A stretch of DNA of 64,000 nt from Bacilli bacterium. Lineage in GTDB: Bacteria > Bacillota_I > Bacilli_A > ML615J-28 > CAG-313. The notes below the pieces were generated by a model. That model was given only the letters and a program-made list of their open reading frames with translations. It was not told the origin of the DNA and ran no database searches. This document shows positions 14,893 to 63,732 of this stretch, piece by piece. The stretch is taken from the NCBI GenBank assembly GCA_045119035.1, contig JBGVCU010000037.1:3301-67300 (forward strand), given 5' to 3'. Made by a program: the position numbers and the translations under genes. Every line of letters starts with the position of its first letter. The stretch's first letter is position 1.

Positions 14893-16209
14893 ATGTATTA
14901 TAGAAAAATTGAAAAAAAATTATATGATTACTATAATAATCAAGATTCTAAGATTTTCATCATAAATGGAGCTAGACAAATTGGGAAAAGTTTTATAATT
15001 AGAGAAACAGCTTCAAAATATTTTAAAAATTATATTGAAATAAATTTAATGGATGATTATAATTCAAATCAGTATTTTAAAAACATTAAAACTACTAAAG
15101 AATTTTATTTACAATTAAGTGCTTTGCATGGTGATAAAATTAATAACATTGAAGACACAATCATTTTTTTAGATGAAATACAAATATATCCGCATCTTAT
15201 TTCACTTTTAAAATCACTTAAAATAGAAAATAAATATCGTTATATTGCAAGTGGATCTTTACTTGGTATAACTTTAAAACATATTTTCATTCCAATGGGA
15301 AGTATTGAAGAAATTAAAATGTATCCAATGGATTTTGAAGAGTTTTTATATGCTAACAATATTGGTAAAGACATCATAGAATATTTAAAAAATTGCTTTG
15401 ATAATCAAGAAAAAGTAAGTGACAATATTCATATGTTTATGTTAAGTAAGTTTAAAGAATATTTAATATGTGGAGGATTACCTGACTCTGTCAAAGAATT
15501 TGTAACAAATAAAAATGTTTTTCGTACAAGAGATAATCAAAATATTACATTTGAATATTATAAAGATGATGCTGCACAATATGATGCTCTTCATAGATTA
15601 AAAATTCGTAGATTATTTGAATTAATGCCTTCATATATGGAAAATAAAGTCAAAAGAGTAAAGTTTAAAGATATTGAAAACATTGAGGATTCTAATTTAA
15701 AAAAATATCAAGATGAATTTGATTATTTAATATATTCAGGATGTGCTTTAGGAGTTAAAGCTATATCAAACCCTAAATTTCCTTTATTGGAATCCAGCAG
15801 CAAAAACTTAATTAAATTATATTATAATGATGTTGGTATTTTAACAAATATTTTATATAGAAATAATATTAATGCCATATTAAATGTGGAAAAATCAGTT
15901 AACTTAGGTTCTGTATATGAAACAGCAGTTGCAATGGAGTTAATTGCTCATGGACATGAATTGTATTATTTTGATAGTAAAAAGGTTGGAGAAGTAGATT
16001 TTTTAATTAATGATTATGATAATTTATCTGTTATTCCGGTAGAAATCAAATCTGGAAAAGATAAATATGAATTTAGAGCCATCCCTAAACTTATAGATAA
16101 AGAAGGAAATTATAAACTAAACCATGGATATATATTTTCAAATAATAATATATGCAATTTTGAAAATGACTTATATTCATATCCAATTTATATGATTATG
16201 TTTATTTAA
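14893..16209 (+). CDS. AAA+ ATPase (AAA_14/COG1373) with C-terminal DUF4143 PD-(D/E)xK nuclease-like domain
   Basis: Walker A GARQIGKSF, Walker B IIFLDEIQ; C-terminal VGEVDFLI…PVEIKSGK fits a D…E-x-K nuclease signature. Confidence 0.65.
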   Translation: MYYRKIEKKLYDYYNNQDSKIFIINGARQIGKSFIIRETASKYFKNYIEINLMDDYNSNQYFKNIKTTKEFYLQLSALHGDKINNIEDTIIFLDEIQIYPHLISLLKSLKIENKYRYIASGSLLGITLKHIFIPMGSIEEIKMYPMDFEEFLYANNIGKDIIEYLKNCFDNQEKVSDNIHMFMLSKFKEYLICGGLPDSVKEFVTNKNVFRTRDNQNITFEYYKDDAAQYDALHRLKIRRLFELMPSYMENKVKRVKFKDIENIEDSNLKKYQDEFDYLIYSGCALGVKAISNPKFPLLESSSKNLIKLYYNDVGILTNILYRNNINAILNVEKSVNLGSVYETAVAMELIAHGHELYYFDSKKVGEVDFLINDYDNLSVIPVEIKSGKDKYEFRAIPKLIDKEGNYKLNHGYIFSNNNICNFENDLYSYPIYMIMFI

Positions 16210-21704: not shown

Positions 21705-24143
21705 ATGTCTCATAATATTTTAATTTATAAAATATTAAATATGAACAATAGAAAGAATTATCGCCGAATTGAAAATGAAATTAATAAAATTGACAATATA
21801 GAAACATTTCATATAGATAAAGAAAAAGACTTAATATATGTTTCTTTTACAAACGATGATAAAGCTAATTTAGATAATCTTACAAAATGTATTACAAAAT
21901 ATGAAAGAAATGTTAAATTAGAAAAACAAGAAAATAAAGAAAAATATCGTAAAGTTCTATATCTTAAAGGATTAGATTGTGGTCATTGTGCAATGAAAAT
22001 TGAAACAATTGCTAAAAAATCTATGCAACATGATCAACTACTTGTTGATTTTGCTACTACTCGATTCATTATTGAAACATCTGATAAAGATTTAGTAGAT
22101 AATATTATTGAAAGAGTAGAAGAAGTAGCACATAAAATTGATCCAAAAATTATTGTATTAGACTCTCAAAAAGATAAAAAAGAACGTGTAGCAGAATCAT
22201 ATAAAGTTGATAAGAAAAAAGTTGCAATACTTGCAATCGGTGTTGCGATTTTCTTAATCGGATTAATGGTTAGATATATTTTACCAGGTATGGCTGAAGG
22301 TCATATTGATGGAGTATTACATAATGTAGCCAATGCAATGTTTATTGTTACATATGTATTAATTGGTCATGAAGTAATAATTGCTTTCTTTAAAAATTTA
22401 GTTAATAGACGTATTTTTGATGAAAATTTCTTAATGACACTTGCAACAATTGGTGCTATTTTTACAGGTCACTATGTTGAAGCTGTAATGGTTATGGTTT
22501 TATATCAAATTGGAGAACATTTACAAGAATCTGCTGTTAATAAGTCTCGTAAATCAATTTCTGAATTACTTACTTTAGAAGCAAAAACAGCTAGAATTAA
22601 AATTGGTACTGAAGTTACTGAAGTTGATGTAGATACTATTTTACCTGGAGATACAATTGTTGTTCAAGTAGGAGAAATGATTCCTTTAGATGGGGTTATT
22701 TCTAATGGTAAATCTGTTTTAGATACTAAATCAATTACTGGTGAATCACGACCTATTAGTTGTAAAGTAAAAGATGAAGTAATTAGTGGATCTATTAATA
22801 TAGGTTCTGTTATTGAAATTAAAGTTACTAGAGCTTATAGTGATTCTATGATTACAAAAATTTTAGACTTAGTTGAAAATGCTAGTACTAAAAAAGCTCA
22901 AGCAGAACACTTTATTACTAAATTTGCTAGAGTATATACTCCAATAGTTGTATTACTTGCAGTGATTTTTGCTGTTGGAATGCCACTAGGAATTCATTTA
23001 TTCAATCCTGAATTAGAACTTTGGCCTTTGTTTAAGGACTATATTTATAGAGCAATGTTTTTCTTAGTTGTGTCATGTCCATGTGCAGTTGTAATTTCTG
23101 TTCCACTTGCATTTTTTGCAGGAATTGGTCTTTCAAGTAAACGTGGTATTTTAGTTAAAGGAAGTAACTACTTAGAAGCTTTAGCTCATGTTAATGATAT
23201 GGTTTTTGATAAAACTGGTACTCTTACAAAAGGTACATTTACAATTCGTGAATTATGTCCTGAAAATGGTGTAAAACCAGAAGATTTATTAAAAACTATC
23301 GCATATGTTGAATATTTTTCAAATCACCCAATCGGTATATCTGTTGTAGATTATTATGGAAGAGATAAAATTTTCCCAGAAATAATTTCTGATTTTGCAA
23401 TGATAGAAGGAAAAGGTGTTAAAGCTGAAATCAATGGTTCTATTACTTATGCTGGAAATAGAAAAATGATTAAAGAGATGTTCCCACAAGTTCCAATTTT
23501 AGATAAAAATGGAGCGATTATATATGTAATTAAAGAAAAGAAATACTTAGGTGCTGTTGTTATCGGCGATGTTTTAAAAGATGAAGCTCACGATACAATG
23601 GAATATTTAAGAGCTAATAATATCACTACATCAATGTTAACTGGTGACTATAAGACTGCTGGTGAATATACTGCAAATATGTTGGAAATGGATAACGTTT
23701 ATACAGATTTATTACCTGATAAAAAAGTTGATATTTTAACTGAAATTATGTCAAATAAAGAAAAGGGTACAACAGTATATGTTGGTGATGGTATTAATGA
23801 TGCCCCAGTAATTGCTACAGCAGATGTTGGTATTGCAATGGGATCTACTGGAAGTGATGCTACAATTGAAGTTGCTGACGTTGTAATTATGAGTGATAAT
23901 TTAGAAAAAATTGAAGAATCTATTATTATTGCAAAAGCAACAAGAAAAAAAGTACTTCAAAATATCATAATGGCATTAGGTATCAAAGTTTTAGTTTTAA
24001 TATTAAGTGCATTTGGAGATATTCCACTTTGGCTTGCAATTTTCTCTGATGTTGGTGTTTCACTTCTTGCTATTTTAAATTCTATGTCATTAACTTCATT
24101 ATTTAAAAATAAACAACAGGAAATAGAAGAAGAAGATGAATAG
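21705..24143 (+). CDS. heavy-metal translocating P1B-type ATPase (Zn/Cd/Co-type)
   Basis: HMA domain with CGHC, TM CPC, DKTGTLT, GDGINDAP, C-terminal SDVGVSLLAILNS (Zn/Cd-type); a degenerate Cys-less HMA-like fold at the extreme N-terminus. Confidence 0.85.
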   Translation: MSHNILIYKILNMNNRKNYRRIENEINKIDNIETFHIDKEKDLIYVSFTNDDKANLDNLTKCITKYERNVKLEKQENKEKYRKVLYLKGLDCGHCAMKIETIAKKSMQHDQLLVDFATTRFIIETSDKDLVDNIIERVEEVAHKIDPKIIVLDSQKDKKERVAESYKVDKKKVAILAIGVAIFLIGLMVRYILPGMAEGHIDGVLHNVANAMFIVTYVLIGHEVIIAFFKNLVNRRIFDENFLMTLATIGAIFTGHYVEAVMVMVLYQIGEHLQESAVNKSRKSISELLTLEAKTARIKIGTEVTEVDVDTILPGDTIVVQVGEMIPLDGVISNGKSVLDTKSITGESRPISCKVKDEVISGSINIGSVIEIKVTRAYSDSMITKILDLVENASTKKAQAEHFITKFARVYTPIVVLLAVIFAVGMPLGIHLFNPELELWPLFKDYIYRAMFFLVVSCPCAVVISVPLAFFAGIGLSSKRGILVKGSNYLEALAHVNDMVFDKTGTLTKGTFTIRELCPENGVKPEDLLKTIAYVEYFSNHPIGISVVDYYGRDKIFPEIISDFAMIEGKGVKAEINGSITYAGNRKMIKEMFPQVPILDKNGAIIYVIKEKKYLGAVVIGDVLKDEAHDTMEYLRANNITTSMLTGDYKTAGEYTANMLEMDNVYTDLLPDKKVDILTEIMSNKEKGTTVYVGDGINDAPVIATADVGIAMGSTGSDATIEVADVVIMSDNLEKIEESIIIAKATRKKVLQNIIMALGIKVLVLILSAFGDIPLWLAIFSDVGVSLLAILNSMSLTSLFKNKQQEIEEEDE

Positions 24144-24621
24144 AACATATATTGGTAAAATAATTGGAACATTTGGTATTAAAGGAGAACTTAAAGTTTT
24201 TTCAGAAAGTGATTTTATTGATCAAAGATTTAAAAAAGGAAATGAATTAATCTTAAAGTCAAATAAATCAGAATTAACTGTTAAAATTTCTTCATTTAGA
24301 ATTCATAAAAATAATGTTTTAATTACAATTAATAACTTATTAAATATAAATGATGTTGAAAAATATATTAACTATGATATATATACTATCCAAGAATTAG
24401 AACTTGATGAAGATGATTATTATATTGATGATTTAATTGGTCTTGAAGTATATAATGAACAAAATATTTTAATTGGTAAAGTAGTAGATGTAATATCTAT
24501 TCCAAGTAATGATATTTTAGAAGTTGAAACTAAAGATAAAAAAATTTTAATACCTTTTATTAACGATTATATTATTGAAATAAATGATAAAATCATCATT
24601 AAAGAAATGGAATTAATGTAA
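24136..24621 (+). CDS. rimM: 16S rRNA processing protein RimM
   Basis: 161 aa; GKIIGTFGIKGELKV N-terminus plus PRC barrel; overlaps the ATPase stop. Confidence 0.85.
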   Translation: MNRTYIGKIIGTFGIKGELKVFSESDFIDQRFKKGNELILKSNKSELTVKISSFRIHKNNVLITINNLLNINDVEKYINYDIYTIQELELDEDDYYIDDLIGLEVYNEQNILIGKVVDVISIPSNDILEVETKDKKILIPFINDYIIEINDKIIIKEMELM

Positions 24622-25355
24622 TGAGATTTGATATTATTACAATTTTTCCAGAATTTATTGAAGGTATTAAAAGTCATTCAATAATCAAAAGAGCAATTGA
24701 AAAAGGTATTATTGAAATTAATACAATCGATTTTAGGGATTATGCACTTGATAAACATAAACATGTTGATGATTATGCATATGGTGGTGGAGCAGGAATG
24801 TTAATTAGTGTTCAGCCAGTTCATCAAGCAATGCAGCAAGTTCCTAATTTGGATAAAGCTTATAAAATAATTACTTCTCCAAGCGGAACTACTTTTAATC
24901 AAAAAGTTGCGGAGCGTTTATCTAAACTTGATCATATTGTAATTGTATGTGGACATTATGAAGGAATTGATTCAAGAATAAATGATTACATTGATGAAGA
25001 AGTTTCATTAGGTGATTATATTCTAACAGGTGGAGAACTTCCTGCACTAACTATCATTGATTCTGTAAGTAGATTAATTTCTGGTGTTATTACAGATGAA
25101 TCTATTAAAGAAGAATCATTTACAACAGGCTTACTTGAATATCCACAATATACAAGACCATATGAATATGATGGTAAAAAAGTACCAGATGTATTAATAT
25201 CTGGACATCATGCTAATATAAAAAAATGGCAAAGATTTGAATCACTTAAAAAAACCTATTTTAATCGTCCTGATTTACTTAATAATATTGAACTTTCTAA
25301 AGAAGATTTAAAGTATCTAGAAATGATTAAAAATAGTGAAGAATTGAAATTTTAA
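24621..25355 (+). CDS. trmD: tRNA (guanine37-N1)-methyltransferase
   Basis: 244 aa; MRFDIITIFPE, GGGAGM, LTGGELPAL motifs. Confidence 0.9.
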   Translation: MRFDIITIFPEFIEGIKSHSIIKRAIEKGIIEINTIDFRDYALDKHKHVDDYAYGGGAGMLISVQPVHQAMQQVPNLDKAYKIITSPSGTTFNQKVAERLSKLDHIVIVCGHYEGIDSRINDYIDEEVSLGDYILTGGELPALTIIDSVSRLISGVITDESIKEESFTTGLLEYPQYTRPYEYDGKKVPDVLISGHHANIKKWQRFESLKKTYFNRPDLLNNIELSKEDLKYLEMIKNSEELKF

Positions 25356-25359
25356 AATT

Positions 25360-25391
25360 AAAAGGAGTTGATAAATATCAACTCCTTTTTA
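25360..25391 (+). terminator. terminator after trmD
   Basis: AAAAGGAGTTGAT-aaat-ATCAACTCCTTTTT. Confidence 0.85.
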
Positions 25392-25492
25392 ATCATATTA
25401 ATATAGATAAATAGTAGTGTATATATATCAATATATTTTATGATTTATGCTATAATTATAAAAATCAATATAAAATATAAAGGTAAGATCAT

Positions 25493-27412
25493 ATGAAGAA
25501 AAGAGACATTTATTTATTTATTATTTTAATTATTGCTATTTTTGGGATACATATTACTAATAATAACTATTATGAATTTAATAATAAAACAGAGCAATAT
25601 ACGAGTAAAGTTATATCTAAATTAAGTTATGAAAGTTATATTCAGCCAATTTTAACAAAAAATAACATTGATATTTTCTTATCTGAATTTAGTGATGATA
25701 TTGAAGAAATAAATATAAATATAGAACAATTAAAGAGTGACTTAAATAGAGCAAAAACTGAATTAACTACTGCTATATCAAATAATGAGGCAGAAATTGA
25801 TGCAAAAATTGCTGCCTTAAACACAGCTATAGAGAATGCTGAAGAAGCTGCCAATTACTATTCTGATGAACAAGATGCTGCGTTAAAAGCAGAATTATTA
25901 GATTTAATAAATACTACTAAAACAGATATTATTAAATATATTGATTCCGAACTTGCAAAAGCAAAAACATCATTTGAAAGCAAATTAGCAATGAAAGCAA
26001 ACAAACCTGAAATTGCTGCAGAAATAGCGAGATTAGATTCACTTATCTCAGCAGCTGAGTCTGTTTCTAAAAGTTATACAAATGAACAAGATGCTGCGTT
26101 AAAAGAAGAATTGAAAAATTTAATTACTACAACTAAAACAGATATAATTAAATATATAGATGAAGAGTTATCAAAGGTTAATGAGAAATTGGATAATATA
26201 TTTAATTTTGTATATAATGAAAGTGAAGTTGATGCAAAACTTGCCGAATTAAGAAGTAATATTGAAAATGCAGAGAAAGTAACAAAATTATATTCTGATG
26301 AACAAGATGCTGCGTTAAAAGAAGAATTAAAAAATTTAGTTACTACAACTAAAACAGATATAATTAAGTATATAGATGAAGAGTTATCAAAGGTTAACGA
26401 GGAATTGGATAATATATTTAAATTTGTTTATAATAAAGCTGAAATTGATGCAAAACTTGCCGCATTAAGAAGTAATATTGAAAATGCAGAGAAAGCAACA
26501 AAATTATATTCTGATGAACAAGATGCTGCGTTAAAAGAAGAATTAAAAAATTTAATTACTACAATTAAAACAGATATAATTAAATATATAGATGACGAAC
26601 TTGCAAAAGCCAAAACATCATTTGAAAGCAAATTAGCAATAAAAGCAAATAAACCTGAAATTGATGCAGAAATAGCGAGATTAGATGCACTTATCTCAGC
26701 AGCAGAATCTGTTTCTAAAACTTATACAGATGAACAAGATGCTGCGTTAAAAGAAGAATTAAAAAATTTAATTACTACTACTAAAACAGATATTATTAAA
26801 TATATAGATGAAGAGTTATCAAAGGTTAATGATGAATTGGATAATATATTTAATTTAGTTTATAATGAAAGTGAAGTTGATGCAAAACTCGCCGAACTAA
26901 GAACTTTTATCAATAGTGCAGATAATGCAACAAAATTATATTCTGATGAACAAGATGCTGCGTTAAAAGAAGAATTAGAAGATTTAATAAATACTACTAA
27001 AACAGATATTATTAAATATATAGATGAAGAGTTATCAAAGGTTAATGAGGATTTAGATAATATATTTAATTCAGTTTATAATGAAAATGAAGTTGATGCA
27101 AAGCTTGCCGAATTAAGAACTATTATTGATAATGCAGATAAAGCAACAAAATTATATTCAGATGAACAAGATATTGCTATAAAAAAAGATCTTGAAGCAA
27201 AAATTTTATCTGTAAAAAATGAATTATTAGAAACAATTAATTTAATTAATCAAAGAATTAGTAAATTTGATCATGATTTATTAAATTTAAAAAAGAAAAT
27301 TCAAATATTAACAATTTCATTTTCATGTTGTATTGGAGTATTATTTATATTATTTGGATTTTTATTTGTATATTTTTATAAAAAAAATAAAAAATTTATT
27401 AAAAAACTTTAA
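25493..27412 (+). CDS. repetitive coiled-coil surface protein (N-terminal signal/TM, C-terminal TM anchor + basic tail)
   Basis: 639 aa; about 8 near-identical ~72-aa units (YSDEQDAALKEELKNLITTTKTDIIKYIDEELSKVN…) with two alternating linker types; C-terminal hydrophobic segment + KKNKKFIKKL. Confidence 0.6.
   Translation: MKKRDIYLFIILIIAIFGIHITNNNYYEFNNKTEQYTSKVISKLSYESYIQPILTKNNIDIFLSEFSDDIEEININIEQLKSDLNRAKTELTTAISNNEAEIDAKIAALNTAIENAEEAANYYSDEQDAALKAELLDLINTTKTDIIKYIDSELAKAKTSFESKLAMKANKPEIAAEIARLDSLISAAESVSKSYTNEQDAALKEELKNLITTTKTDIIKYIDEELSKVNEKLDNIFNFVYNESEVDAKLAELRSNIENAEKVTKLYSDEQDAALKEELKNLVTTTKTDIIKYIDEELSKVNEELDNIFKFVYNKAEIDAKLAALRSNIENAEKATKLYSDEQDAALKEELKNLITTIKTDIIKYIDDELAKAKTSFESKLAIKANKPEIDAEIARLDALISAAESVSKTYTDEQDAALKEELKNLITTTKTDIIKYIDEELSKVNDELDNIFNLVYNESEVDAKLAELRTFINSADNATKLYSDEQDAALKEELEDLINTTKTDIIKYIDEELSKVNEDLDNIFNSVYNENEVDAKLAELRTIIDNADKATKLYSDEQDIAIKKDLEAKILSVKNELLETINLINQRISKFDHDLLNLKKKIQILTISFSCCIGVLFILFGFLFVYFYKKNKKFIKKL
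25858..27190 (+). repeat. intragenic tandem repeat array (about 8 units, ~216-222 bp period, high nucleotide identity)
   Basis: 'gaacaagatgctgcgttaaaagaagaattaaaaaattta…' recurs at about 25867, 26085, 26300, 26518, 26729, 26949, 27160. Confidence 0.85.
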
Positions 27413-27502: not shown

Positions 27503-27541
27503 AAATAAAAAAGGAGCTTATAATTAAGCTCCTTATTTTTC
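27503..27541. terminator. bidirectional terminator (repeat protein / cvfB convergent)
   Basis: AAGGAGCTTA-taat-TAAGCTCCTT flanked by A- and T-runs. Confidence 0.8.
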
Positions 27542-28387
27542 ATTTAAAGTTATTAAATTTTCTTTAATTGTAATTAATTTTTGTTTATATAAATTTCCAA
27601 TTGCTCTTTTAAAAGCACTTTTACTAAATGGGAAGTATCTAGCAATTTCTTCTGGACTAGATTTGTCTCCAAGTGGAAGTGAACCACCTTGTGTTTTTAA
27701 GTGCTGTAAAATAATTTCACTATCATCAAGTCTACTTAATTCTTTATTAGGAATAAGTGTTCCGTTATAAGTAATTCTTTCTGTTTCGTGAATTACTTTT
27801 ACATTAATTCTTTGACCTAGGCGATATTTGCTTCTTAATAAACTTTTATGAACAAAGATTAAATTAAAGTTATCTGTACAAAGTGTAATACCTTCTGGAG
27901 AAATTCTATAAATTGTAGCTTCAACAGTTGAACCTATTTCAATTTTTTCAAGAGGTAATACATCTGTATTTCCAATCATTTTTGCTACTAATTGGTCTCT
28001 TTTAATTTTTATAATACAAGGCACAACATCCCCAACTTGTGGCCAAAGATCTGGGTTACTTGGCAAAAAGTCAGAAGAAAGTAAAATGTCTTTAGCAATA
28101 CCTATGTTTAAGAATACACCCATTGAATTATGTTTTGCTATTACTTCACAAAAAGCTGCTTTTGTAGTAGTAATAAGTGGAGTTTCAGTTGTTGCGCAAA
28201 GACGTTTCTTTTGATCATAATATAAAAATGCTTCAACATGTTGACCAATATTTAATCTATTTTTTGTTTGGTTAAAATGTAAGAAGATATCTGTAGTTTC
28301 ATTTTCATCAAGTGAATGTAATGTATATGCGATATCTGTTTCTTTAACCACTTCATATGTATCAATATTTCCAATTCTAAGTGACAT
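27533..28387 (-). CDS. cvfB: CvfB/YitL-family S1-like RNA-binding protein
   Basis: Tandem S1-like domains + C-terminal winged helix; probable start MSLRIGNID (the track start is 7 codons earlier and lacks an RBS). Confidence 0.6.
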   Translation of the reverse strand: MSLRIGNIDTYEVVKETDIAYTLHSLDENETTDIFLHFNQTKNRLNIGQHVEAFLYYDQKKRLCATTETPLITTTKAAFCEVIAKHNSMGVFLNIGIAKDILLSSDFLPSNPDLWPQVGDVVPCIIKIKRDQLVAKMIGNTDVLPLEKIEIGSTVEATIYRISPEGITLCTDNFNLIFVHKSLLRSKYRLGQRINVKVIHETERITYNGTLIPNKELSRLDDSEIILQHLKTQGGSLPLGDKSSPEEIARYFPFSKSAFKRAIGNLYKQKLITIKENLITLNEK

Positions 28388-28482
28388 AATATATATATTT
28401 CCTTTCATATAGATTTTACGTTAAAAAGTAATTTTTGTCAAGGAATAAGGTTATATAAATATGTCATATAAAATCAAACTAC

Positions 28483-35901: not shown

Positions 35902-35997
35902 GAATATTTGAAAAAATAGGTAAAATATGATATAATATATGTATAAAATAATAAAATATGGTCGTAATCTCGACTATATTTAAAAGGAGAATTGAAT

Positions 35998-38733
35998 ATG
36001 AAAAGAATACTAATGTCAATTACACTTGTATTAATTTTATTACTTACTTCATGTGGTAATTTAATTAAACCAGGTCCAGGAAATGAACCTGAAAATCCAA
36101 ATCCTGAATGTGAACATTTAACTGAAACATTAGCTGAATATGATGAAACAGGACATTGGATAAAGTGTCTTAGTTGTAACGAAAAATTAGAATTTTCGGA
36201 ACATAAATATAATGCATGGATTACTGTTTTAGAACCTTCATTAGGAGTTGAAGGTAAAAAAGTGAAAAACTGTACTGAATGCGAATTTAGTGTAGAAGAA
36301 ATTATTCCTGCATTAACTGATTGTGTTCATCCAAATGTTTCTAATAATTGGGTGGTTGATGAAACTGGTCATTGGCATATTTGTAATGATTGCCCAATAA
36401 CATTAGATTATTCTGTGCACTCATATAGTGATTGGGTTGTAACTATTACTCCGCAAGTAGGAGTTGCAGGTAAAAAGGTTAAGACTTGTGATATATGTAA
36501 CTATAGTGTAGAAGAAGTTCTTCCTGCACTTCCACAACCTGATCCAGAACCTACTGATGGTCAAGTTAATGTTACTAAAATTGGTACTGGATTTGAAACT
36601 ATTTACTTAGAATGGACTCCTTATAATAATGCTACAAAATATCATGTATATTGTGATAATAAATTAATTGATGCTGAACTTATCAGATTTTATGGTACAT
36701 ATTTTAGAGCAGATATAATTGGTATTACTGCAAATGACCATATTGTAAAAGTTGTTCCAGTTGTAGGTGGAAAAGAAGTTACAGCAGCTAAAGTAGAATA
36801 TACTCGTAGACCTGAAGCCTATGTAAGAGAAGGATACTCATTTACTGGTGAATGTACTGGTGCATATAATATGGATGGTACATTAAAACAAAATGCTCAA
36901 GTAATATATGTTACAGCAAAAACTGCAAAAACTGTTACAGCAACTGTAAATGGTGCAACACAAACAGGTTTACAAGCAATTCTAGATGCTAAACAAAAAG
37001 CAAATACTTCAAATGATATTTTATGTATTCGTGTTATAGGAATGATTTCTGCAAATGATATGGATTCATTTTCTAGTTCTGCACAAGGCCTACAAATTAA
37101 AGGTCGTAGTGCTGAAACAAATATGAATATTACTTTTGAAGGTGTAGGAAACGATGCTACTATTAATGGTTTTGGTTTCTTAATCAGAAATTGCTCAAAC
37201 GTTGAAATTAGAAATATCGGAATTATGAATTTTATGGATGACGGAATTAGTGTTGATACAGATAATTCACATCTATGGCTACATAATATTGACTTTTATT
37301 ATGGACAAGCTGGTGGAGATGCTGACCAAGATAAAGGTGATGGTTCATTAGATATTAAAAAATCTCATTATATAACTGTTTCATATAATCATTTCTATGA
37401 ATCTGGTAAATGTGCTTTACTTGATGCCGGAACTGGTGAAGGAAGTGACTATATTACATATCACCACAATTGGTTTGACCATTCAGACTCAAGACATCCA
37501 AGAGTAAGAAACGCTGAACATGTTCATGTATATAATAACTACTATGATGGTGTTGCAAAATATGGTATTGGTGCTGCTGGTGGTGGAAGTAATGTCTTTA
37601 GTGAAGCAAATTATTTTAGAAATACAAAATATCCAATTTTAACTTCACAACAAGGAAGTGATATTGCAACAGATAGTAAAGGTACTTTCTCAGGTGAAGA
37701 TGGTGGTGTAGTTAAGAGTTTTGGTGATTTAATGATTGGTGGTACATTTGTTCCATATAGTGAAAATAATGTTCAATATGACGCATATGTTGCAGCAACA
37801 AGAAATGAGCTTGTTCCATCAACTGTTAAATCTTTAAAAGGTGGATTTACATATAATAATTTTGATACAGCAAGTGATATGTACAGCTATAATCCACATA
37901 CTGCTGAAGCTGCAAAAGATAATGTAACACAATATGCAGGTAGATTACAAGGTGGAGATTTAAAATGGACATTTACTGAAGAAGATGATGCATCTTATGC
38001 AATAAATTCTGGACTTAAACAAGCTGTAAATAATTACAAACCAACTGTTGTTTTAGGTGAAGTTATCATGTCTAATTCTTTAGTTGAAATGATTGATTCA
38101 ATTCCTGAAAATGTTACTTTGGAAGATAGTTCATATATATATGATTGTTATAATCAATATATTAAATTAACTGATTCACAAAAAGAAGAAATAACAAACT
38201 CTCATAAATTACTTGCTGCGTATAATACAATTTTTAAATTAGAAATTGAAAGAGTTATTCAACTAATTGATAACATGGACGTAGATAATCAAGAAGAAGT
38301 ACAAAGTGTTTATCTTGAATATAGTAAACTTACTGCTGATCAAAAGAAAGACGTAACTAATATAGATATTCTTACAAATGCAATGGGTTCAATTCCAGTT
38401 GATAAAATTGAACATAATTTTGATAATGGATTAAGTTCAGATTTCTTTAATATTTCTGGTAACTTATCTAAATCTAAAGGTGTTGCTACATATAATGGTT
38501 TAACAATTTCTCAATGTTTAAAAATTGAATCAAGTACAAATATTTCATTTACAATTACAACAAAGATGACTCTTACAATTGTATTTGGAGATGAAGATAC
38601 AAAGACAAATATTAAAATTGATGGTGTAAAACAAACAACATCAACAAAAGTATTAACAATAGAACTTGAAGCTGGATCTCATACAATAACTAAAGCAGAT
38701 TCAACAAATGTTTTCTATTTATCTTTAGAATAA
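35998..38733 (+). CDS. lipoprotein with PL1-family pectate lyase domain
   Basis: Lipobox LLTSCGN; duplicated Cys-containing ~40-aa N-terminal modules; PL1 signature NWFDHSDSRHPRVRNAEHVHVYNNYYD; C-terminal short repeats; ATG at 35998 follows AAGGAGA (the track start is a TTG). Confidence 0.65.
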   Translation: MKRILMSITLVLILLLTSCGNLIKPGPGNEPENPNPECEHLTETLAEYDETGHWIKCLSCNEKLEFSEHKYNAWITVLEPSLGVEGKKVKNCTECEFSVEEIIPALTDCVHPNVSNNWVVDETGHWHICNDCPITLDYSVHSYSDWVVTITPQVGVAGKKVKTCDICNYSVEEVLPALPQPDPEPTDGQVNVTKIGTGFETIYLEWTPYNNATKYHVYCDNKLIDAELIRFYGTYFRADIIGITANDHIVKVVPVVGGKEVTAAKVEYTRRPEAYVREGYSFTGECTGAYNMDGTLKQNAQVIYVTAKTAKTVTATVNGATQTGLQAILDAKQKANTSNDILCIRVIGMISANDMDSFSSSAQGLQIKGRSAETNMNITFEGVGNDATINGFGFLIRNCSNVEIRNIGIMNFMDDGISVDTDNSHLWLHNIDFYYGQAGGDADQDKGDGSLDIKKSHYITVSYNHFYESGKCALLDAGTGEGSDYITYHHNWFDHSDSRHPRVRNAEHVHVYNNYYDGVAKYGIGAAGGGSNVFSEANYFRNTKYPILTSQQGSDIATDSKGTFSGEDGGVVKSFGDLMIGGTFVPYSENNVQYDAYVAATRNELVPSTVKSLKGGFTYNNFDTASDMYSYNPHTAEAAKDNVTQYAGRLQGGDLKWTFTEEDDASYAINSGLKQAVNNYKPTVVLGEVIMSNSLVEMIDSIPENVTLEDSSYIYDCYNQYIKLTDSQKEEITNSHKLLAAYNTIFKLEIERVIQLIDNMDVDNQEEVQSVYLEYSKLTADQKKDVTNIDILTNAMGSIPVDKIEHNFDNGLSSDFFNISGNLSKSKGVATYNGLTISQCLKIESSTNISFTITTKMTLTIVFGDEDTKTNIKIDGVKQTTSTKVLTIELEAGSHTITKADSTNVFYLSLE

Positions 38734-47900: not shown

Positions 47901-47911
47901 AGGTAATGTTT

Positions 47912-48931
47912 ATGCAAATTAATAAAGAGACAGTTAATTTTATAACAGACTCATTTGATGAACTTACTACGTTATATTATAATTATTATAATAATTTAAA
48001 TTTAGAAAACGTAAGTGAATCAAAAGATAATGTTATAAGAGTATCATATTTAGAAGCATTAACAAACGTACTTAACTTATATATGGATTCAGAAGAAATA
48101 GAAGTAGATGATAAGAATCAACAAAGAGTAAACGAATTAGTTGATGAAATTGATAACTTATTTTCTACATATACAGTAAATTCTGAAGAAATCAGAAAAG
48201 CAATGTTATTACTTAATATCAAAGGATTTAAACATGTTAATTTCTCTTTAGATATTATTACACCTGATGCTGTTTGTATGGTTTTAGTACATTTAGTAAA
48301 TGCAATATTTGATCAAACTAAACAATTAAATATTATAGATCCAAACTGTGGTACAGGTAATTTAATAGCAATGTTAAATAACTTTTTACCAAATGAAGTG
48401 AATTTCGTAGGAATTGATAGTCATCAAATTTTAACTAATTTATTCTCTACACAAGCAAACTTTATGGAAATGGCTGTACAAGTATATTATCAGGATGCAC
48501 TTCAAGATTCTTTTGAAGATTTTGATATATTAGTTACTGATGTTGCTACATACGAATATGATATTAAAAATTATAAATCTCATCTTGCTAATAAAGGTAT
48601 TAAATATTTCCCATATTTATTAATTGAAAAATATTTGTCATCACCAAATCCTATTCAAAAACAAATTTATCTAATTGATAATGATTTCTTTGAACAAGAT
48701 GGAAGTAATGAATTTAAAAATTTTATAAAAGATAAAGCAATTATTAAACAATTAATAGCTTTACCAAATACAATGTTTCAAGAAGAAAATTTTACAAGAG
48801 GAATTCTAGTATTAGAATTATTAAATGATGAAAATATTCATCAAAAGACTGGTATTTATATGTTACCAAGTTTCACTGAAACTGATAAATTAAATCAAGT
48901 CTTACAAGAAATAAAAAAAGATTTAAAATAG
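47912..48931 (+). CDS. class I SAM-dependent methyltransferase (YtxK-like, N6-adenine MTase fold)
   Basis: SAM-binding IIDPNCGTGNLIAML; sits upstream of ackA as ytxK does in B. subtilis; probable start at the second ATG (spacing to AAAGG). Confidence 0.5.
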   Translation: MQINKETVNFITDSFDELTTLYYNYYNNLNLENVSESKDNVIRVSYLEALTNVLNLYMDSEEIEVDDKNQQRVNELVDEIDNLFSTYTVNSEEIRKAMLLLNIKGFKHVNFSLDIITPDAVCMVLVHLVNAIFDQTKQLNIIDPNCGTGNLIAMLNNFLPNEVNFVGIDSHQILTNLFSTQANFMEMAVQVYYQDALQDSFEDFDILVTDVATYEYDIKNYKSHLANKGIKYFPYLLIEKYLSSPNPIQKQIYLIDNDFFEQDGSNEFKNFIKDKAIIKQLIALPNTMFQEENFTRGILVLELLNDENIHQKTGIYMLPSFTETDKLNQVLQEIKKDLK

Positions 48932-50274: not shown

Positions 50275-52215
50275 ATGAAAAAATTAATTAATTTATTTTA
50301 TTTAGTAACATTATTATTTACAAATAATGTTACAGAAAATGTAACTGATAAGTCTATACTTACAAAACCATTAATCTGTATAGAAGGAACTAACTATGAA
50401 AATTATTTATTTTATGAGGGGTATGAAATAATTGAAAATAACGTAAATTTCAATATGCCAGGTAAATATCATGTTACATATCAATCAAAAGATGATCAAA
50501 AATTTGTAAAAAATGTTGATGTGATTTCCAAAGACAATTTAAATAACTTATCATATTATCAAATAACAAAACAAAACTATGATAATAATAATGATTACTA
50601 TGATGAAGGTTTAATGACAAAACTAATAGATAATGAATATTCATACTATGTTATTAGCTATTTTGATAGAGATAATGAAGCTAGTACAGAATATTTAGAT
50701 ATTTATTATAATAATACATTAATTAAACAAACAACTATTTCAACTGATCAAGAATTAAAAATTACAAAGATTCTTAAAACAAATACTAACTTATATTTAG
50801 TAGGTACAAAAAAGCATAACAATTCTTCTTATGATATATATGTTTCAGAATATAGTTTAATTGGTGAATTTGTAAGAGATTTCTATATTCATGGTAATAA
50901 TTACGATGAAGTAAAAGATGCAATCATTGTAGATGATTATATGTATATTACTGGAGTATCTTCATCAAATGATGGTTATTTTCATGGTGGAATTGATAAT
51001 GATGTATTTTTATTTAAAGTAGATTTTAAATTAGGAATAATTAGAAAATCATATAATTCTAATACAATAGGTTCTGAAACAGTAACAAATTTGGTTTATT
51101 TTGAAGACGCATTATATTATGGCTATTCATATCTTAAAAATGGCTATAAAAATTGTGTGGTAAGAAAAATCAATTTAAATCTTGAAACAATTCAAGAACT
51201 AGATTATGGTTATAGAATAGGTATTGATATTAGTAAACTTGCAACTGATGATTATAACTTATATATTTTAATGTCATATCATGATTATGATTTGAAAAGA
51301 AATATATCTGTTTTAAATGTTGTAAGTAGCAATTTAACATATGTAAACCAATTTATATATAAATTTATCGATTATTCATTTGTTAAACCAATTGATTTAG
51401 TTATTAACAAAGACAATATTATAAGTTTATTATTTCAAGTAAATACTGTAAATTATATTCCTGGATATTCTCTTATTAAACTTAAAGATAACAAGGAAAT
51501 TTTAAATGTTATCAAGTGTGAAAACAACTATCCAGTTAAATTTAAAGATAATAATGGGAATACTATATATACAAAAGTGAAAAATAAACTTATTGAAGAA
51601 AAAGTAAATAGTGTTTTAGTATTTGATTTTGGTCCAGATATTATTGACAATGAAAGTAGTGTAAATGATTATTTGATATATATTAATTCAAAAAAAGTCG
51701 TACATGATAATAAATTATCAAAAATATCATATGACTTAGATAATTTCGGATCATATAATTTATTATATTATTTTAAAACACAAGATGTTGATTTTATTTA
51801 TACAAAAAATTATTACATTAAAGAAAATACTAATATAGTAAACAATGAAACATATGATAAAGACTTTAGACTTTATTTTAATGGTACAGCCTATTTAAAT
51901 GGAGAACTAATTGATAATGGCTTTAAGGTAACTGAAGTGGGTAAATACACTTTAGATTTAATTGGTAAAGATGGTATTCAGAAAAAATATAGTTTTTTTA
52001 TTGAAGATAATTCACTTAAAAATAAAGATATTACAGATAATAAAACAGTTAGTATAAAAGAAAACAATATTAATACTCAAGAAACAGATATTAATATAGG
52101 TGTTAACCAAATACCATACGAACAAAAAGAAGATTTTATTAATAAAGATTATTTAATGTTAATTCCTGTTATCATCTTTACAGCCACACTTCTTTGTTTA
52201 TTTAAAATAAAATAG
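50275..52215 (+). CDS. hypothetical type-I membrane/surface protein (signal peptide + C-terminal TM anchor)
   Basis: 646 aa; Asn/Tyr-rich; shares a C-terminal ~50-aa module (FNG.AYLNGE.I.NG…G.Y.L.L) and TM anchor with the downstream paralog. Confidence 0.4.
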   Translation: MKKLINLFYLVTLLFTNNVTENVTDKSILTKPLICIEGTNYENYLFYEGYEIIENNVNFNMPGKYHVTYQSKDDQKFVKNVDVISKDNLNNLSYYQITKQNYDNNNDYYDEGLMTKLIDNEYSYYVISYFDRDNEASTEYLDIYYNNTLIKQTTISTDQELKITKILKTNTNLYLVGTKKHNNSSYDIYVSEYSLIGEFVRDFYIHGNNYDEVKDAIIVDDYMYITGVSSSNDGYFHGGIDNDVFLFKVDFKLGIIRKSYNSNTIGSETVTNLVYFEDALYYGYSYLKNGYKNCVVRKINLNLETIQELDYGYRIGIDISKLATDDYNLYILMSYHDYDLKRNISVLNVVSSNLTYVNQFIYKFIDYSFVKPIDLVINKDNIISLLFQVNTVNYIPGYSLIKLKDNKEILNVIKCENNYPVKFKDNNGNTIYTKVKNKLIEEKVNSVLVFDFGPDIIDNESSVNDYLIYINSKKVVHDNKLSKISYDLDNFGSYNLLYYFKTQDVDFIYTKNYYIKENTNIVNNETYDKDFRLYFNGTAYLNGELIDNGFKVTEVGKYTLDLIGKDGIQKKYSFFIEDNSLKNKDITDNKTVSIKENNINTQETDINIGVNQIPYEQKEDFINKDYLMLIPVIIFTATLLCLFKIK

Positions 52216-52223
52216 GTGATGAT

Positions 52224-54434
52224 ATGAGTATTTATTTTAAATGTCTTAAACTACTAATTTTAATTTCATTAATATGGGCCCTTGGAATATTTACAATTAA
52301 ACTTCAACTAAAAGCAAATAATGAAAATAACTTCAATGTTACAATAGATGATGAAGTAGAGTATGTCTTAGAAGAAAAAGTAAATAAAATCTTAACGAAT
52401 AAAAATTATACAATATACATAACTAACAAAAATTCATATCTATATGAAGAAGAATATATAAATTCTTTTAATGACTTGATTGTAGATTTTGAAGTTAGTG
52501 AATGTGTATATTTAATCACTGAAAATAAATTACTTAAATATAACTATAAATCAGTTAAAGAAATAACTTTTGAAAATGTTACTTTAAACGATATATTTAT
52601 AGATAATAAATATATCTACTTATGTGGATCAAAAAATAATGATTCAGTTTTTTATAAGTTAAATCAAAATTTAGATATACTTGATGAAATAGTGCTTGGA
52701 GGAGATAAATTTGAAACATTTATTAATATATATGTTTATAATAATGTTTACTACTTAGTTGGTCAAAAAGACAGTATTTCTAATAATAGTCCATTTAAAA
52801 ATGTAGGTAAACCTGATACTTCTAAAATTTTTATGATAATGTATTATGAAGATATTATTAATGAAGTTTATTTTAATACAACTACGTTATCTGAAAATCT
52901 AATAGATGTAATATTTAAAGACTATATTTATTTGTTACTAGATTCAAAAGAGATATTTAAATTAGATTATAATTTTAATGTTATACCTACTAAACAACTT
53001 GAATATGATTTTGATCATATTTTCGTGGATATAAATTGCGATGTAGCTACTTATAAAATAAATAACAATAGTTTATTTATAAATAATTTATTAGTGAAAG
53101 AATTTGATTCATCTATTTTATATTTTGATACAGCTATTAGTCCTATAGTTTATTGTATTGAAAATAGCAAAATATCTAAATATAATTTATTTATATATCA
53201 AATAATTAAAAACGAAGAACTTGTTTTAACAAAAGATAATTTTGACTATAATACATTAAATAACTTAGAAATATATTCTCCATTTGAAAAACTTGAAAAA
53301 AGACTTCTAGAAAGTTCTATTTTAAATAAACAAGTTCACGGTACATATAATGTTTCTTATCAAATTAGAAGATCTAATAATAAATCATTTAATCTTGATG
53401 GAAAATTAACAATAAAGCCTTATATTAATATCATTAATAATGGTATATATAAAATTGGGAAAACATTATCTTTTTTTGGAAAAGCATATCTTAATGAAGT
53501 AGAAATCTTTAATGGACATGTATTAAGTGAAGAAGGAAATTATAAGTTAAAACTTTTTGATAATAATTTAAATCAAACAACTTACGAATTTAGTGTTATT
53601 GATAACTATTATAAAGATTGTGAAATAGTAGAATATAAAACAGATTATGAAATCTTTCAAAATGATGTTGTTAGAATCTCACTTTTTATAAATAATTTTT
53701 CTAGTGAACAAATTAAAGAAATTATTGTTAATGATAATATTTATACAAATTATGAAGTAATTGAAAACGAAATAATCATTTATTTATATCCAAAAAATTA
53801 TTATGATATATCTAATTATTATTTAGATAAGATAATTTTAGAAAATAATGAAGAAGTTCTAATTAATAAAAATATTACAATTAAAACATTAAAAACAAAT
53901 CCAATTGTAACACTAAATCAATCAATGGATAATAATAACATAATATTAGACTATGAAATTAGTGATTCTGATAAATCGATTATGTATTTAGAAACAAATA
54001 TTTATTATAATGAAGAAAAATTTCAAACTATTGTTAACTATTTTAATAATGATGAAAATTTTATTTTAAACAATCTACCAAAAGAAAATTTAAAAATAGA
54101 ACATTTATTAATATATCACACCGGAAAAAACAAAAAAACACTAAAACTAGCTGAATATAATATCGAGAAATTAAGAAAAGAAAATTTATTTGAGTTAACA
54201 TATTTAGTTGATTCAAATTTAAATAAGGTAACTTTTAAATTAAATTATAAAAACTTAAAATTGACAAATTTACTTATTAATAATCAAAATATCCTAAATA
54301 ATATAAATATTCCAAATATTTTAAATAATTTATCAATTAATCATCTTGTTATTATTGGAAGTTTTATTGTGTTTAGTTTCAGTTTAATTATTCTTAAAAT
54401 TAAACGTAAAAGAAAAACAAAACAAACTGACTAA
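52224..54434 (+). CDS. hypothetical type-I membrane/surface protein, paralogous to the upstream gene
   Basis: 736 aa; N-terminal TM/signal; C-terminal TM anchor + KRKRKTK tail; same C-terminal module. Confidence 0.4.
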   Translation: MSIYFKCLKLLILISLIWALGIFTIKLQLKANNENNFNVTIDDEVEYVLEEKVNKILTNKNYTIYITNKNSYLYEEEYINSFNDLIVDFEVSECVYLITENKLLKYNYKSVKEITFENVTLNDIFIDNKYIYLCGSKNNDSVFYKLNQNLDILDEIVLGGDKFETFINIYVYNNVYYLVGQKDSISNNSPFKNVGKPDTSKIFMIMYYEDIINEVYFNTTTLSENLIDVIFKDYIYLLLDSKEIFKLDYNFNVIPTKQLEYDFDHIFVDINCDVATYKINNNSLFINNLLVKEFDSSILYFDTAISPIVYCIENSKISKYNLFIYQIIKNEELVLTKDNFDYNTLNNLEIYSPFEKLEKRLLESSILNKQVHGTYNVSYQIRRSNNKSFNLDGKLTIKPYINIINNGIYKIGKTLSFFGKAYLNEVEIFNGHVLSEEGNYKLKLFDNNLNQTTYEFSVIDNYYKDCEIVEYKTDYEIFQNDVVRISLFINNFSSEQIKEIIVNDNIYTNYEVIENEIIIYLYPKNYYDISNYYLDKIILENNEEVLINKNITIKTLKTNPIVTLNQSMDNNNIILDYEISDSDKSIMYLETNIYYNEEKFQTIVNYFNNDENFILNNLPKENLKIEHLLIYHTGKNKKTLKLAEYNIEKLRKENLFELTYLVDSNLNKVTFKLNYKNLKLTNLLINNQNILNNINIPNILNNLSINHLVIIGSFIVFSFSLIILKIKRKRKTKQTD

Positions 54435-62643: not shown

Positions 62644-63732
62644 ATGACTAGAACAACGAAGGTGTTAATAACTACTCTAATAACTCTTTTATTATTTGGT
62701 TTATTAATGATTTATTCAGCAAGTAATGTTGTTGCAAAATTTACATTTAATAATGAATATTATTATGTGTATAAACAAGTCGTATATATATTAATTAGCA
62801 TTTTTGTAGGTTATTTTATTTATAATATAGATTTAATTTATTTTAAAAAATACGCAAATATAATTTTTATTTCATGTACCATTTTACTAGTTATTGTTTT
62901 AATACCTGGTATTGGGATTGTTAGAGGTGGAGCAAGAAGTTGGATTGGATTTGGTAATTTTACTATTCAACCATCAGAAATAATGAAACTAGGTATGATT
63001 ATTTTTTTATCAAAAGTATTTACAAATATTGATAATGAATTGTTAAAATTTAAAAATCTATTAATATTATTATTATTTATATTATCTATTTTTGTATTGA
63101 TTATGTTTCAGCCTGATTTTGGTACAGGAATAGTTATTGTAATGTCAAGTATATTTTTATTATTTACAATAAATACAAAGATAAAACATTTTATATATAT
63201 AGGTGTTGTTGGAATCATAGGTATTGTAATATTAATTATTATAGCACCTTACAGAATGGAAAGAATAACAGCTTTTTTAGATCCTTGGAATGATCCATTA
63301 GGAAGTGGATTTCAAAGTATTCAAAGTTTATATGCAATAGCTCCAAGTGGAATTTTTGGACTTGGTTTTAATAAATCAATTCAAAAACATTTCTTTTTAC
63401 CCGAACCTCAAAATGATTTTATATTCGCAATTATATGTGAAGAATTAGGATTAATTGGTGGTCTATTTACAATTGGTCTATTTTTAATTATTTTAATTTA
63501 TGGTGTAAGGGTAAGTTTATATCAAAAAGATTTATTTAAAAAGTATCTTTGTTTAGGCATGGTTTATACTTTATTTACTCAAGTATTTATTAATATTGGT
63601 GTAGTAATTGGATTACTTCCTGTTACCGGAATTACATTACCTTTTATTAGTGTTGGAGGTACTAGTTTAATTATTTCTGTTATTCAAGTTGCAATTATTA
63701 TTAATTTAAGTAAAAAGGAGAATATATCATGA
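62644..63732 (+). CDS. ftsW: SEDS-family peptidoglycan glycosyltransferase FtsW/RodA/SpoVE
   Basis: 362 aa; 10-TM SEDS layout; GFQSIQSLYAI motif; followed by murG. Confidence 0.75.
   Translation: MTRTTKVLITTLITLLLFGLLMIYSASNVVAKFTFNNEYYYVYKQVVYILISIFVGYFIYNIDLIYFKKYANIIFISCTILLVIVLIPGIGIVRGGARSWIGFGNFTIQPSEIMKLGMIIFLSKVFTNIDNELLKFKNLLILLLFILSIFVLIMFQPDFGTGIVIVMSSIFLLFTINTKIKHFIYIGVVGIIGIVILIIIAPYRMERITAFLDPWNDPLGSGFQSIQSLYAIAPSGIFGLGFNKSIQKHFFLPEPQNDFIFAIICEELGLIGGLFTIGLFLIILIYGVRVSLYQKDLFKKYLCLGMVYTLFTQVFINIGVVIGLLPVTGITLPFISVGGTSLIISVIQVAIIINLSKKENIS

Follow-up and report, generated by a model that had tools for sequence, protein, structure and literature searches.

The window analysed here is a 64,000-nucleotide (nt) stretch of a Bacilli bacterium contig (JBGVCU010000037.1, positions 3,301 to 67,300; assembly GCA_045119035.1). 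Between trmD and cvfB it carries a complete coding sequence for a tandem-repeat protein (25493-27412, plus strand; 639 amino acids (aa) plus stop). We consider it probable, though well short of certain, that this gene encodes an exported fibrous surface protein, namely a head-less, membrane-anchored stalk that is likely an alpha/beta coiled coil of three parallel chains.

The repeat gene in the trmD-cvfB gap

The open reading frame at 25493-27412 (+) was intact, with 639 aa and zero frameshifts across all units. A frameshift inside the repeats, which an earlier sequence-only reading of this DNA had named as evidence that would count against it, was not found. A protein identical to the product is already present as an NCBI entry. 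The GC content of the gene was 24%, that of the window 26%, and an Rfam scan of the whole window gave no family at gathering threshold. The upstream neighbour trmD (24621-25355, +; Pfam tRNA_m1G_MT, E = 8.6e-63) is the last gene of an rpsP-KH-(P-type ATPase)-rimM-trmD block. A terminator-like hairpin 3' of trmD (25360-25389, +), with a 13-bp stem, a 4-nt loop and a U-run (free energy -16 kcal/mol; z = -6.8 relative to shuffled sequences), sets the repeat gene apart from the ribosomal operon. It is followed by an extended -10 promoter-like element, TGCTATAAT (25448-25456, +; a consensus match only), 37 nt 5' of the ATG, and by a Shine-Dalgarno-like AAGGT (25480-25484, +), 8 nt 5' of the ATG. 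On the other side, a terminator scan of both strands placed a bidirectional hairpin at 27511-27534 (-14.6 kcal/mol, z = -4.8), common to the repeat gene and the convergent cvfB (27533-28408, minus strand), whose product has S1 domains and a winged helix (Pfam S1_2, CvfB_WH, CvfB_1st, CvfB_2nd). Next comes rplS for ribosomal protein L19 (28610-28957, +; Pfam Ribosomal_L19, E = 5.6e-49). Because of the promoter-like element, the AAGGT and the hairpins on both sides, the repeat gene is predicted to be its own transcription unit between trmD and cvfB.

The locus was then compared over 80 loci from a TrmD-protein scan of one genome per species, in which no conspecific genome was found. As the sequence-only reading had assumed, adjacency of trmD and rplS is a common state (rplS downstream, gap ≤300 bp, in 38 of the 80). 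A minus-strand cvfB between the two genes was present only in L003, an 'uncultured Mollicutes' metagenome-assembled genome (MAG), and L004, an 'uncultured Bacilli' MAG, which are also the nearest by TrmD (68% and 64% identical). The repeat gene was absent from the trmD-cvfB slot of both. In L004 this slot holds a 146-aa rhodanese-like lipoprotein gene directly 3' of trmD (L004 4827-5267), and in L003 (8713-12474) the gene for the same lipoprotein, again directly 3' of trmD, together with one for a 1096-aa HExxH (HETGHLLGL) lipoprotein. Both rhodanese-like lipoproteins are small, with a C-terminal C-x-C. Since L003 and L004 carry minus-strand cvfB at this site without the repeat gene, cvfB appears to be the older resident of the trmD-rplS junction in this lineage and the repeat gene a separate occupant, and the earlier proposal that the two had been inserted together is not upheld. 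The contents of the slot differ among genomes, and the trmD-cvfB gap therefore seems to act as a swap site for surface-protein genes, which would mark it as an exchange slot in the window genome. A search of the window turned up neither a relic nor a relocated copy of the rhodanese-like lipoprotein, and the HExxH lipoprotein was absent from it too. The rpsP-trmD operon has undergone another lineage-level change: an 812-aa heavy-metal-type P-type ATPase gene (21705-24143, +) lies inside the otherwise conserved rpsP-KH-rimM-trmD block, and this insertion is also present in L004 and L013.

A 72-residue array and its change by whole units

The tandem array expected from the sequence-only reading was recovered by a tandem-repeat finder (TRF) with a score of 1442 and a period of 216 nt, far beyond chance. 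A gapless repeat finder gave six in-register copies at a spacing of exactly 216 nt (25859-27154), so that the period, earlier put at 216-222 bp, is exactly 216 nt (72 aa). These six full units (+, aa 123-554) carry linkers in the order A-B-B-A-B-B. They are preceded by a partial unit with a B-like second half (25694-25858, +; aa 68-122) and followed by a degenerate last unit that runs into the membrane-proximal helix (27155-27280, +; aa 555-596). A local hidden Markov model (HMM) built from the six full units found 8 units in the window protein and 412 across its family. The matches at both margins, at aa 68-120 and aa 555-596, have to be counted to reach the 'about 8' units first described. 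The two linker types reported earlier exist, but they do not alternate. The string quoted then, a 39-mer, does recur, three times exactly and five times at ≤3 mismatches, always 216 nt apart, at a chance expectation of 0.

'Near-identical' proved too strong a term for the units. Those with the same linker type shared 88-93% nt identity (79-86% aa identity), those with different types 62-70% nt identity. The first 99 nt of the unit were 80-96% alike across all units, and the last 117 nt only 44-51% alike between linker types. Synonymous divergence (dS) between same-type units was 0.13-0.25 and the ratio of nonsynonymous to synonymous divergence (dN/dS) 0.36-0.50; because of these values, the copies appear to be old and under purifying selection. 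A higher-order duplication of 648 nt (A-B-B) was considered and rejected, as the corresponding units were 89-91% identical, no higher than B units generally (88-93%). The longest exact stretches between units of the window array were 39-58 nt, which suffice for homologous recombination. Paralogues of the repeat gene were not found within the window.

Stalk length changes by whole units in two related lineages. Among the relatives described below, P0041, P0004 and P0088 are alleles of 738, 810 and 882 aa that are 95-97% identical, with nearly invariant heads; their stalks vary in length by exact multiples of a 72-aa unit. Nearest to the window protein among the homologues are P0014 (274 aa) and P0002 (421 aa). 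The length difference between these two is 438 nt (2 x 73 aa), their flanks are 96.6-97.1% identical, and the longest exact inter-unit repeat in their array (62 nt) is below the assembly k of 141. The homologue locus of these two is not at trmD; a TrkH-like gene borders it on one side and an aldo/keto reductase gene on the other. Both cases bear out the earlier statement that such arrays are prone to expansion and contraction. A second strain of the repeat gene itself was not found in protein sets, JGI metagenome contigs or IMG/VR. As a mechanism, the number of units would set the length of the stalk, and whole units could be gained or lost when the conserved first halves of two units recombine or slip against each other.

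Protein ends, relatives and predicted stalk

The product begins with MKKRD and a hydrophobic segment (25493-25564, +; aa 1-24), which by Kyte-Doolittle scan (aa 7-24 hydrophobic) and motif checks would be a Sec signal peptide or a signal anchor. A motif check of the window protein revealed no AxA cleavage site after this h-region, and no lipobox ([LVI][ASTVI][GAS]C) occurred in the first 40 residues. A non-repeat N-terminal tip rich in N, Y and S follows (25565-25693, +; aa 25-67). It was modelled at low confidence (predicted local distance difference test, pLDDT, <50 for aa 1-69) and is absent from the closest homologue, the alignment of P0002 to the query starting only at aa 284. At the other end lie a C-terminal transmembrane (TM) helix, IQILTISFSCCIGVLFILFGFLFVYFY (27299-27379, +; aa 603-629; hydropathy up to 2.6 over 19 residues), and the basic tail KKNKKFIKKL (27380-27409, +; aa 630-639), predicted to be cytoplasmic and, by the positive-inside rule, a stop-transfer signal. 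Positive charges thus stand beside both hydrophobic ends. The hydropathy and motif scans agree with the sequence-only reading in all three of these respects, the N-terminal hydrophobic segment, the C-terminal anchor with its basic tail and the missing LPXTG. No LPXTG-type motif ([LIVS]PX[TSA][GANS]) was present anywhere in the protein, which has only 3 prolines; Pfam gave no match to a YadA-type beta-barrel anchor, and the C-terminus is a single hydrophobic helix. The window protein is neither an LPXTG protein nor a lipoprotein nor an autotransporter. Its predicted topology is that of an exported, C-terminally membrane-anchored helical repeat protein. It would be exported by Sec through its N-terminal signal and then stopped and anchored by the C-terminal helix and basic tail, leaving about 530 residues of helical repeats outside the cell. 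Cleavage of the signal is suggested by relatives and is uncertain given the missing AxA site.

Curated models offered no name for this protein. Pfam, NCBIfam and PHROGs had no model at threshold, and Pfam had none for the repeat at E values up to 10. Sub-threshold matches of the protein and its relatives in the three collections (Spectrin_SYNE1, FAM195, SMC etc.) were set aside as unusable coiled-coil noise; the sole sequence match in the PDB was to an engineered T4 lysozyme (E = 0.3). A word-indexed set of 5.8 billion proteins returned 12 matches, i.e. the identical NCBI entry, P0002 (43% identity) and weak ones. Searching that set with a profile of the 72-aa unit gave no match and was of no use. 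A HMMER search over 1.84 billion representative proteins found 73 relatives at E ≤ 1e-3, with 29 at ≤ 1e-10 and 4 at ≤ 1e-30; phmmer E-values from the window protein to relatives ranged from 1e-67 to 1e-10. The relatives share a common layout: a canonical signal peptide leads into a variable head, helical repeats with a period of 72 aa come next, and at the C-terminus a TM helix is followed by a K/R tail. Their heads consist of Flg_new / Listeria-Bacteroides repeats, beta-helix-like regions or Cys-rich modules. The TM helix and K/R tail stood at the matching position in nearly all complete relatives, and in 35 of 57 cases one motif followed the next at 72 aa, in proteins that differ widely in composition. 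The only name found for any member, 'leucine-rich repeat protein [Clostridia bacterium]', refers to the head.

In some relatives a collagen-like Gly-X-Y stretch lies between the stalk and the TM anchor. This stretch, with a conserved 'GxNGNWWIGDTDTG', was seen among P0008-P0012, P0034, P0052, P0053, P0068, P0079 and P0081. These parts, not the stalk, match phage tail-fibre PHROGs weakly. A phage tail-fibre origin was rejected for the window protein, since such matches occurred only in the collagen-bearing relatives.

The window protein has the repeat of this family (8 HMM matches, six of them full-length at exact 72-aa spacing) and its anchor (the TM helix at aa 603-629, then KKNKKFIKKL). It has no large head, with only about 43 non-repeat residues after the signal. 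P0002, P0014 and P0037 are head-less as well, and a head is common in the family, not universal. On these sequence features, we therefore place the window protein among the head-less members of this family of Firmicutes surface proteins, which is so far uncurated.

The anatomy of the unit was derived from 228 distinct full-length units of 76 proteins, with the consensus YADxxDAALKxELExxIxxAKxxAIxAAxxxLxxAKxELxxAIxxKADxxxLNxxIxxLNxAIxxAExxAK. Each unit holds two junction motifs, YADxxD and [I/L]xxKADxxx[L/V]. In the family profile, I43 and L52 are 9 residues apart with K46-A47-D48 in the centre, and the window units keep this spacing in a test of motif and spacing only. Their first junction reads YSDEQD or YTNEQD. 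At the second, KAN (A units, L-x-x-K-A-N-x-x-x-I) or VYN (B units, F-x-x-V-Y-N-x-x-x-V) stands within the same hydrophobic spacing. AlphaFold2 (AF2) monomer models were made of the full protein (pLDDT 65.6) and of a three-unit fragment with the family alignment (pLDDT 61.5). Both consisted of helices throughout, one of about 40 and one of about 24 residues in each unit, and the helix breaks coincided exactly with YSDEQD and with KANKPE (A units) or VYNESE (B units), in keeping with the coiled-coil-like helical centre proposed from the sequence. The long helix had a hydrophobic period of 3.74-3.76, the short one a period of 3.42-3.44. Confidence was low (pLDDT 61-66, predicted template modelling score (pTM) about 0.4; four of the five fragment models scored 40-49), which would be as expected for an obligate oligomeric fibre. 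A Foldseek search of the PDB with the AF2 model returned designed helical repeats and Exo70 at TM-scores ≤ 0.3, a generic result that is uninformative because of the low model confidence. Profile positions 38-68 also matched the anti-CRISPR AcrIIC4 (7xvo, 8hns, 7msl, 7f7p; E about 0.004 over 31 residues), which was judged a chance helical similarity. Pfam matches of relatives to DUF16 and CCDC90-like models (E = 0.16 and 0.002) were both below cut-offs. When compared with 5APQ, a crystallised trimeric GCN4-IENKAD-GCN4, the unit profile aligned with KAD in register at a weak E of 0.03.

Collagen triple-helix repeats require three chains. Because the junctions resemble known beta-layer motifs and some relatives carry collagen repeats, we favour a trimer: in its most likely form the stalk would be a parallel trimer, an alpha/beta coiled coil whose junctions serve as beta-layers. 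Counting about 0.15 nm for each residue of a parallel coiled coil, the repeat region of about 530 residues would then assemble into a fibre roughly 70-80 nm in length. The window also encodes a protein of the FtsW/RodA/SpoVE family (62644-63732, +; E = 1e-104), so a wall is likely, and the organism probably makes peptidoglycan although its nearest public relative is labelled 'Mollicutes'. The fibre would span this wall and project the short N-terminal tip. Without a head, its exposed parts would be the rod and that tip, which was not found in homologues. Our best guess at its role is a surface coat, a spacer or a low-complexity adhesin.

Several points weigh against this view. The trimer and its beta-layers are an inference, the match to 5APQ is not significant by itself, and the window units have VYN (B) and KAN (A) where the family has KAD. 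Cleavage of the N-terminal segment is uncertain without an AxA-type site, and the purpose of a bare stalk is hard to assign without a head domain. There was no second strain for comparison, and dS values of 0.13-0.25 between units indicate an array without recent change. Inferences about the family draw on sequence only, from no more than 73 representative relatives that come from metagenomic proteins.

Among the alternatives, the best one, though unlikely, follows the sequence-only reading and takes the repeat array itself as the working part, a variable adhesin or a surface for interaction with host or phage, like phytoplasma VmpA or streptococcal M protein, in which copy number would tune avidity rather than reach. 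Vmp adhesins have the architecture of the window protein, in which a signal is followed by tandem repeats (about 78 aa each in Vmp) and a TM helix at the C-terminus, and their repeat number varies among strains (PMC4392738, PMC7135369). A head-less protein exposes nothing else but a tip of 40-100 aa, the inter-unit dN/dS is fairly relaxed, and the chromosomal slot carries different surface proteins in related genomes. Against it, no binding domain or ligand is indicated, and in most relatives the repeat is plainly the stalk under a large head. Positive selection between units was not detected. A phage association was not seen either, PHROG matches being negligible and IMG/VR relatives absent.

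Repeats of FIVAR/DUF1542 or spectrin type occur in giant surface proteins of Gram-positive bacteria, and the stalk could be a monomeric rod of this kind, built of tandem helical hairpins or three-helix bundles with each 72-aa unit folded on itself. It would be much shorter (about 15-25 nm), with the C-terminal TM anchor unchanged. In favour of such a rod, the AF2 monomers put loops at both junctions, with long and short helices alternating, and Foldseek gives only alpha/alpha solenoid-like designed repeat proteins; the many Ala at core positions also fit antiparallel packing, and the hydrophobic periods of the two helices differ. However, the models and Foldseek matches that would carry it are those of low confidence and low TM-score given above, the collagen repeats of relatives need trimers, and the junction motifs with their 9-residue spacing fit beta-layer nonads. 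We think the rod unlikely.

Less probable again is that the N-terminal segment is an uncleaved signal anchor, so that the membrane holds both ends and the helical region runs through the wall zone as a long loop or antiparallel hairpin, with a role as membrane-proximal scaffold or spacer instead of a projecting fibre. This would account for the missing small-x-small site and lipobox, and the closest homologues P0002 and P0014 likewise have no AxA site. The A-B-B-A-B-B order would let two similar halves pair, and in published descriptions of phytoplasma VmpA/VmpB the repeats lie between two hydrophobic helices, one at each terminus (PMC7135369). On the other hand, head-bearing relatives have canonical cleavable signal peptides (e.g. 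...ALTASA|AE and ...SISASA|ET), the signal peptide of VmpA is cleaved in phytoplasma (PMC4392738), and a parallel trimer is incompatible with both ends in the membrane. Finally, an assembly artefact in the array or its copy number is very improbable: the source is an uncultured MAG-type contig and short-read assemblies can collapse tandem repeats, but the frame is open through all units, the 72-aa period is held exactly family-wide, and the units differ by at least 7-12% with a longest exact match of 58 nt, below usual reads and final k-mers and resolvable by short reads, and collapse is therefore unlikely.

We thus retain the head-less, membrane-anchored trimeric stalk as the preferred reading. 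A bolder proposal, which we offer tentatively and regard as doubtful at present, is that proteins with the 72-residue module make up a class of head-stalk-anchor fibres in Gram-positive bacteria that is neither described nor curated so far, a counterpart of trimeric autotransporter adhesins anchored in the cytoplasmic membrane. Its stalks would be trimeric alpha/beta coiled coils, with two beta-layers per unit of fixed length and a stalk length set in one-unit quanta, and the window protein would be a natural stalk-only spacer or ruler, or a minimal adhesin.

Other genes of the window give some context. Two adjacent open reading frames (50275-52215 and 52224-54434, both +) encode N/K/Y-rich proteins of 646 and 736 aa without Pfam match. 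Like the repeat protein, these have an N-terminal hydrophobic segment, a C-terminal TM helix and a basic tail, and they are probably further surface proteins. Degradation of plant fibre in the gut or rumen is suggested as the lifestyle by a 913-aa lipoprotein (35992-38733, +; LLLTSC lipobox) that combines a pectate lyase domain with a CBM77 at its C-terminus. In surroundings of housekeeping genes, an AAA_14/DUF4143 ATPase gene (14893-16209, +) and an N6-DNA-methylase-domain gene (47906-48931, +) may each be a singleton that is mobile or related to defence.

Comparison with known systems

Surface fibrils that are built from repeats and anchored in the membrane are already known. The present repeat of 72 aa has neither a Pfam or NCBIfam model nor a solved structure, and its period is strictly kept under very different heads in uncultured gut Firmicutes. 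With a profile of the unit, these large proteins, labelled hypothetical or 'leucine-rich repeat', could be annotated as surface stalk proteins.

By architecture, the Vmp adhesins and the ScARPs appear to be the closest known analogues, in a comparison made by layout and of the VmpA termini only. Phytoplasma VmpA and VmpB begin with a signal or hydrophobic segment, continue with tandem repeats of 78 aa (234 nt) and carry a TM helix at the C-terminus (PMC4392738, PMC7135369). The order of signal, tandem repeats and C-terminal TM helix in Vmp1, VmpA, VmpB and Spiroplasma citri ScARP is matched by the window protein, as is the short basic tail after the helix, and both groups come from low-GC genomes of Bacilli/Mollicutes type. 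The repeat number of Vmp/ScARP varies between strains; for the window family, polymorphism was seen in the two related lineages. The C-terminal ends look alike (VmpA ...GYYFYEKNNKKID, window protein ...VYFYKKNKKFIKKL), a low-complexity likeness that is not evidence of homology, and no Vmp-type name occurred among the 73 HMMER relatives. The units differ in length (78 aa in Vmp, 72 aa here). Vmp proteins belong to wall-less plant pathogens, whereas the window organism is of gut type with an FtsW/RodA gene, and the Vmp proteins are adhesins while the window protein has no known adhesin function.

M and M-like proteins of Gram-positive cocci resemble the window family as helical repeat fibrils of a Gram-positive-type surface with variation in repeat number. 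They are LPXTG-anchored, in contrast to the TM helix and basic tail alone of the window protein, and they are dimers with heptad repeats to which the window protein shows no sequence similarity.

Most beta-layer fibres known belong to autotransporters of Gram-negative bacteria, the others to a small number of further families. Should the stalk be an alpha/beta coiled coil of three chains, such fibres would extend to a Gram-positive head-stalk-anchor system, and the family would be a naturally modular, length-quantised fibre. By stalk motif, beta-layer coiled coils appear to be the closest system. Published examples include Tcar0761/DUF3782, DUF1640/CCDC90 and M. pneumoniae DUF16, with VYT and FVT beta-layers also listed (PMC4786415). 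The beta-layers IENKADKADV, in the stalk of Actinobacillus OMP100, and MATKDDIAN, the nonad of Thermosinus Tcar0761 with the consensus [aliphatic]-A-T-K-polar-[DE], both stand in parallel trimers (Hartmann et al. 2016, PMC4786415). The [I/L]xxKADxxx[L/V] of the family has the motif and the 9-residue spacing of IENKADKADV, its YADxxDAAL resembles MATKDDIAN, and FVYNESE of the window B units recalls the VYT and FVT layers. Mixed heptad and longer periodicities occur in these coiled coils as in the window unit. They have no significant sequence relationship to the window family, and a composite module of 72 aa with two junctions per unit is not described in PMC4786415.

The wider family may be seen as an analogue of the trimeric autotransporter adhesins of Gram-negative bacteria, not as a member. 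It shares with them a variable head, a long repetitive stalk, a C-terminal anchor and a length set by repeats. Those adhesins carry a head and end in an outer-membrane beta-barrel of YadA type, whereas the window family, in Firmicutes, ends in a single TM helix in the cytoplasmic membrane, and the window protein would present such a stalk with the head left off.

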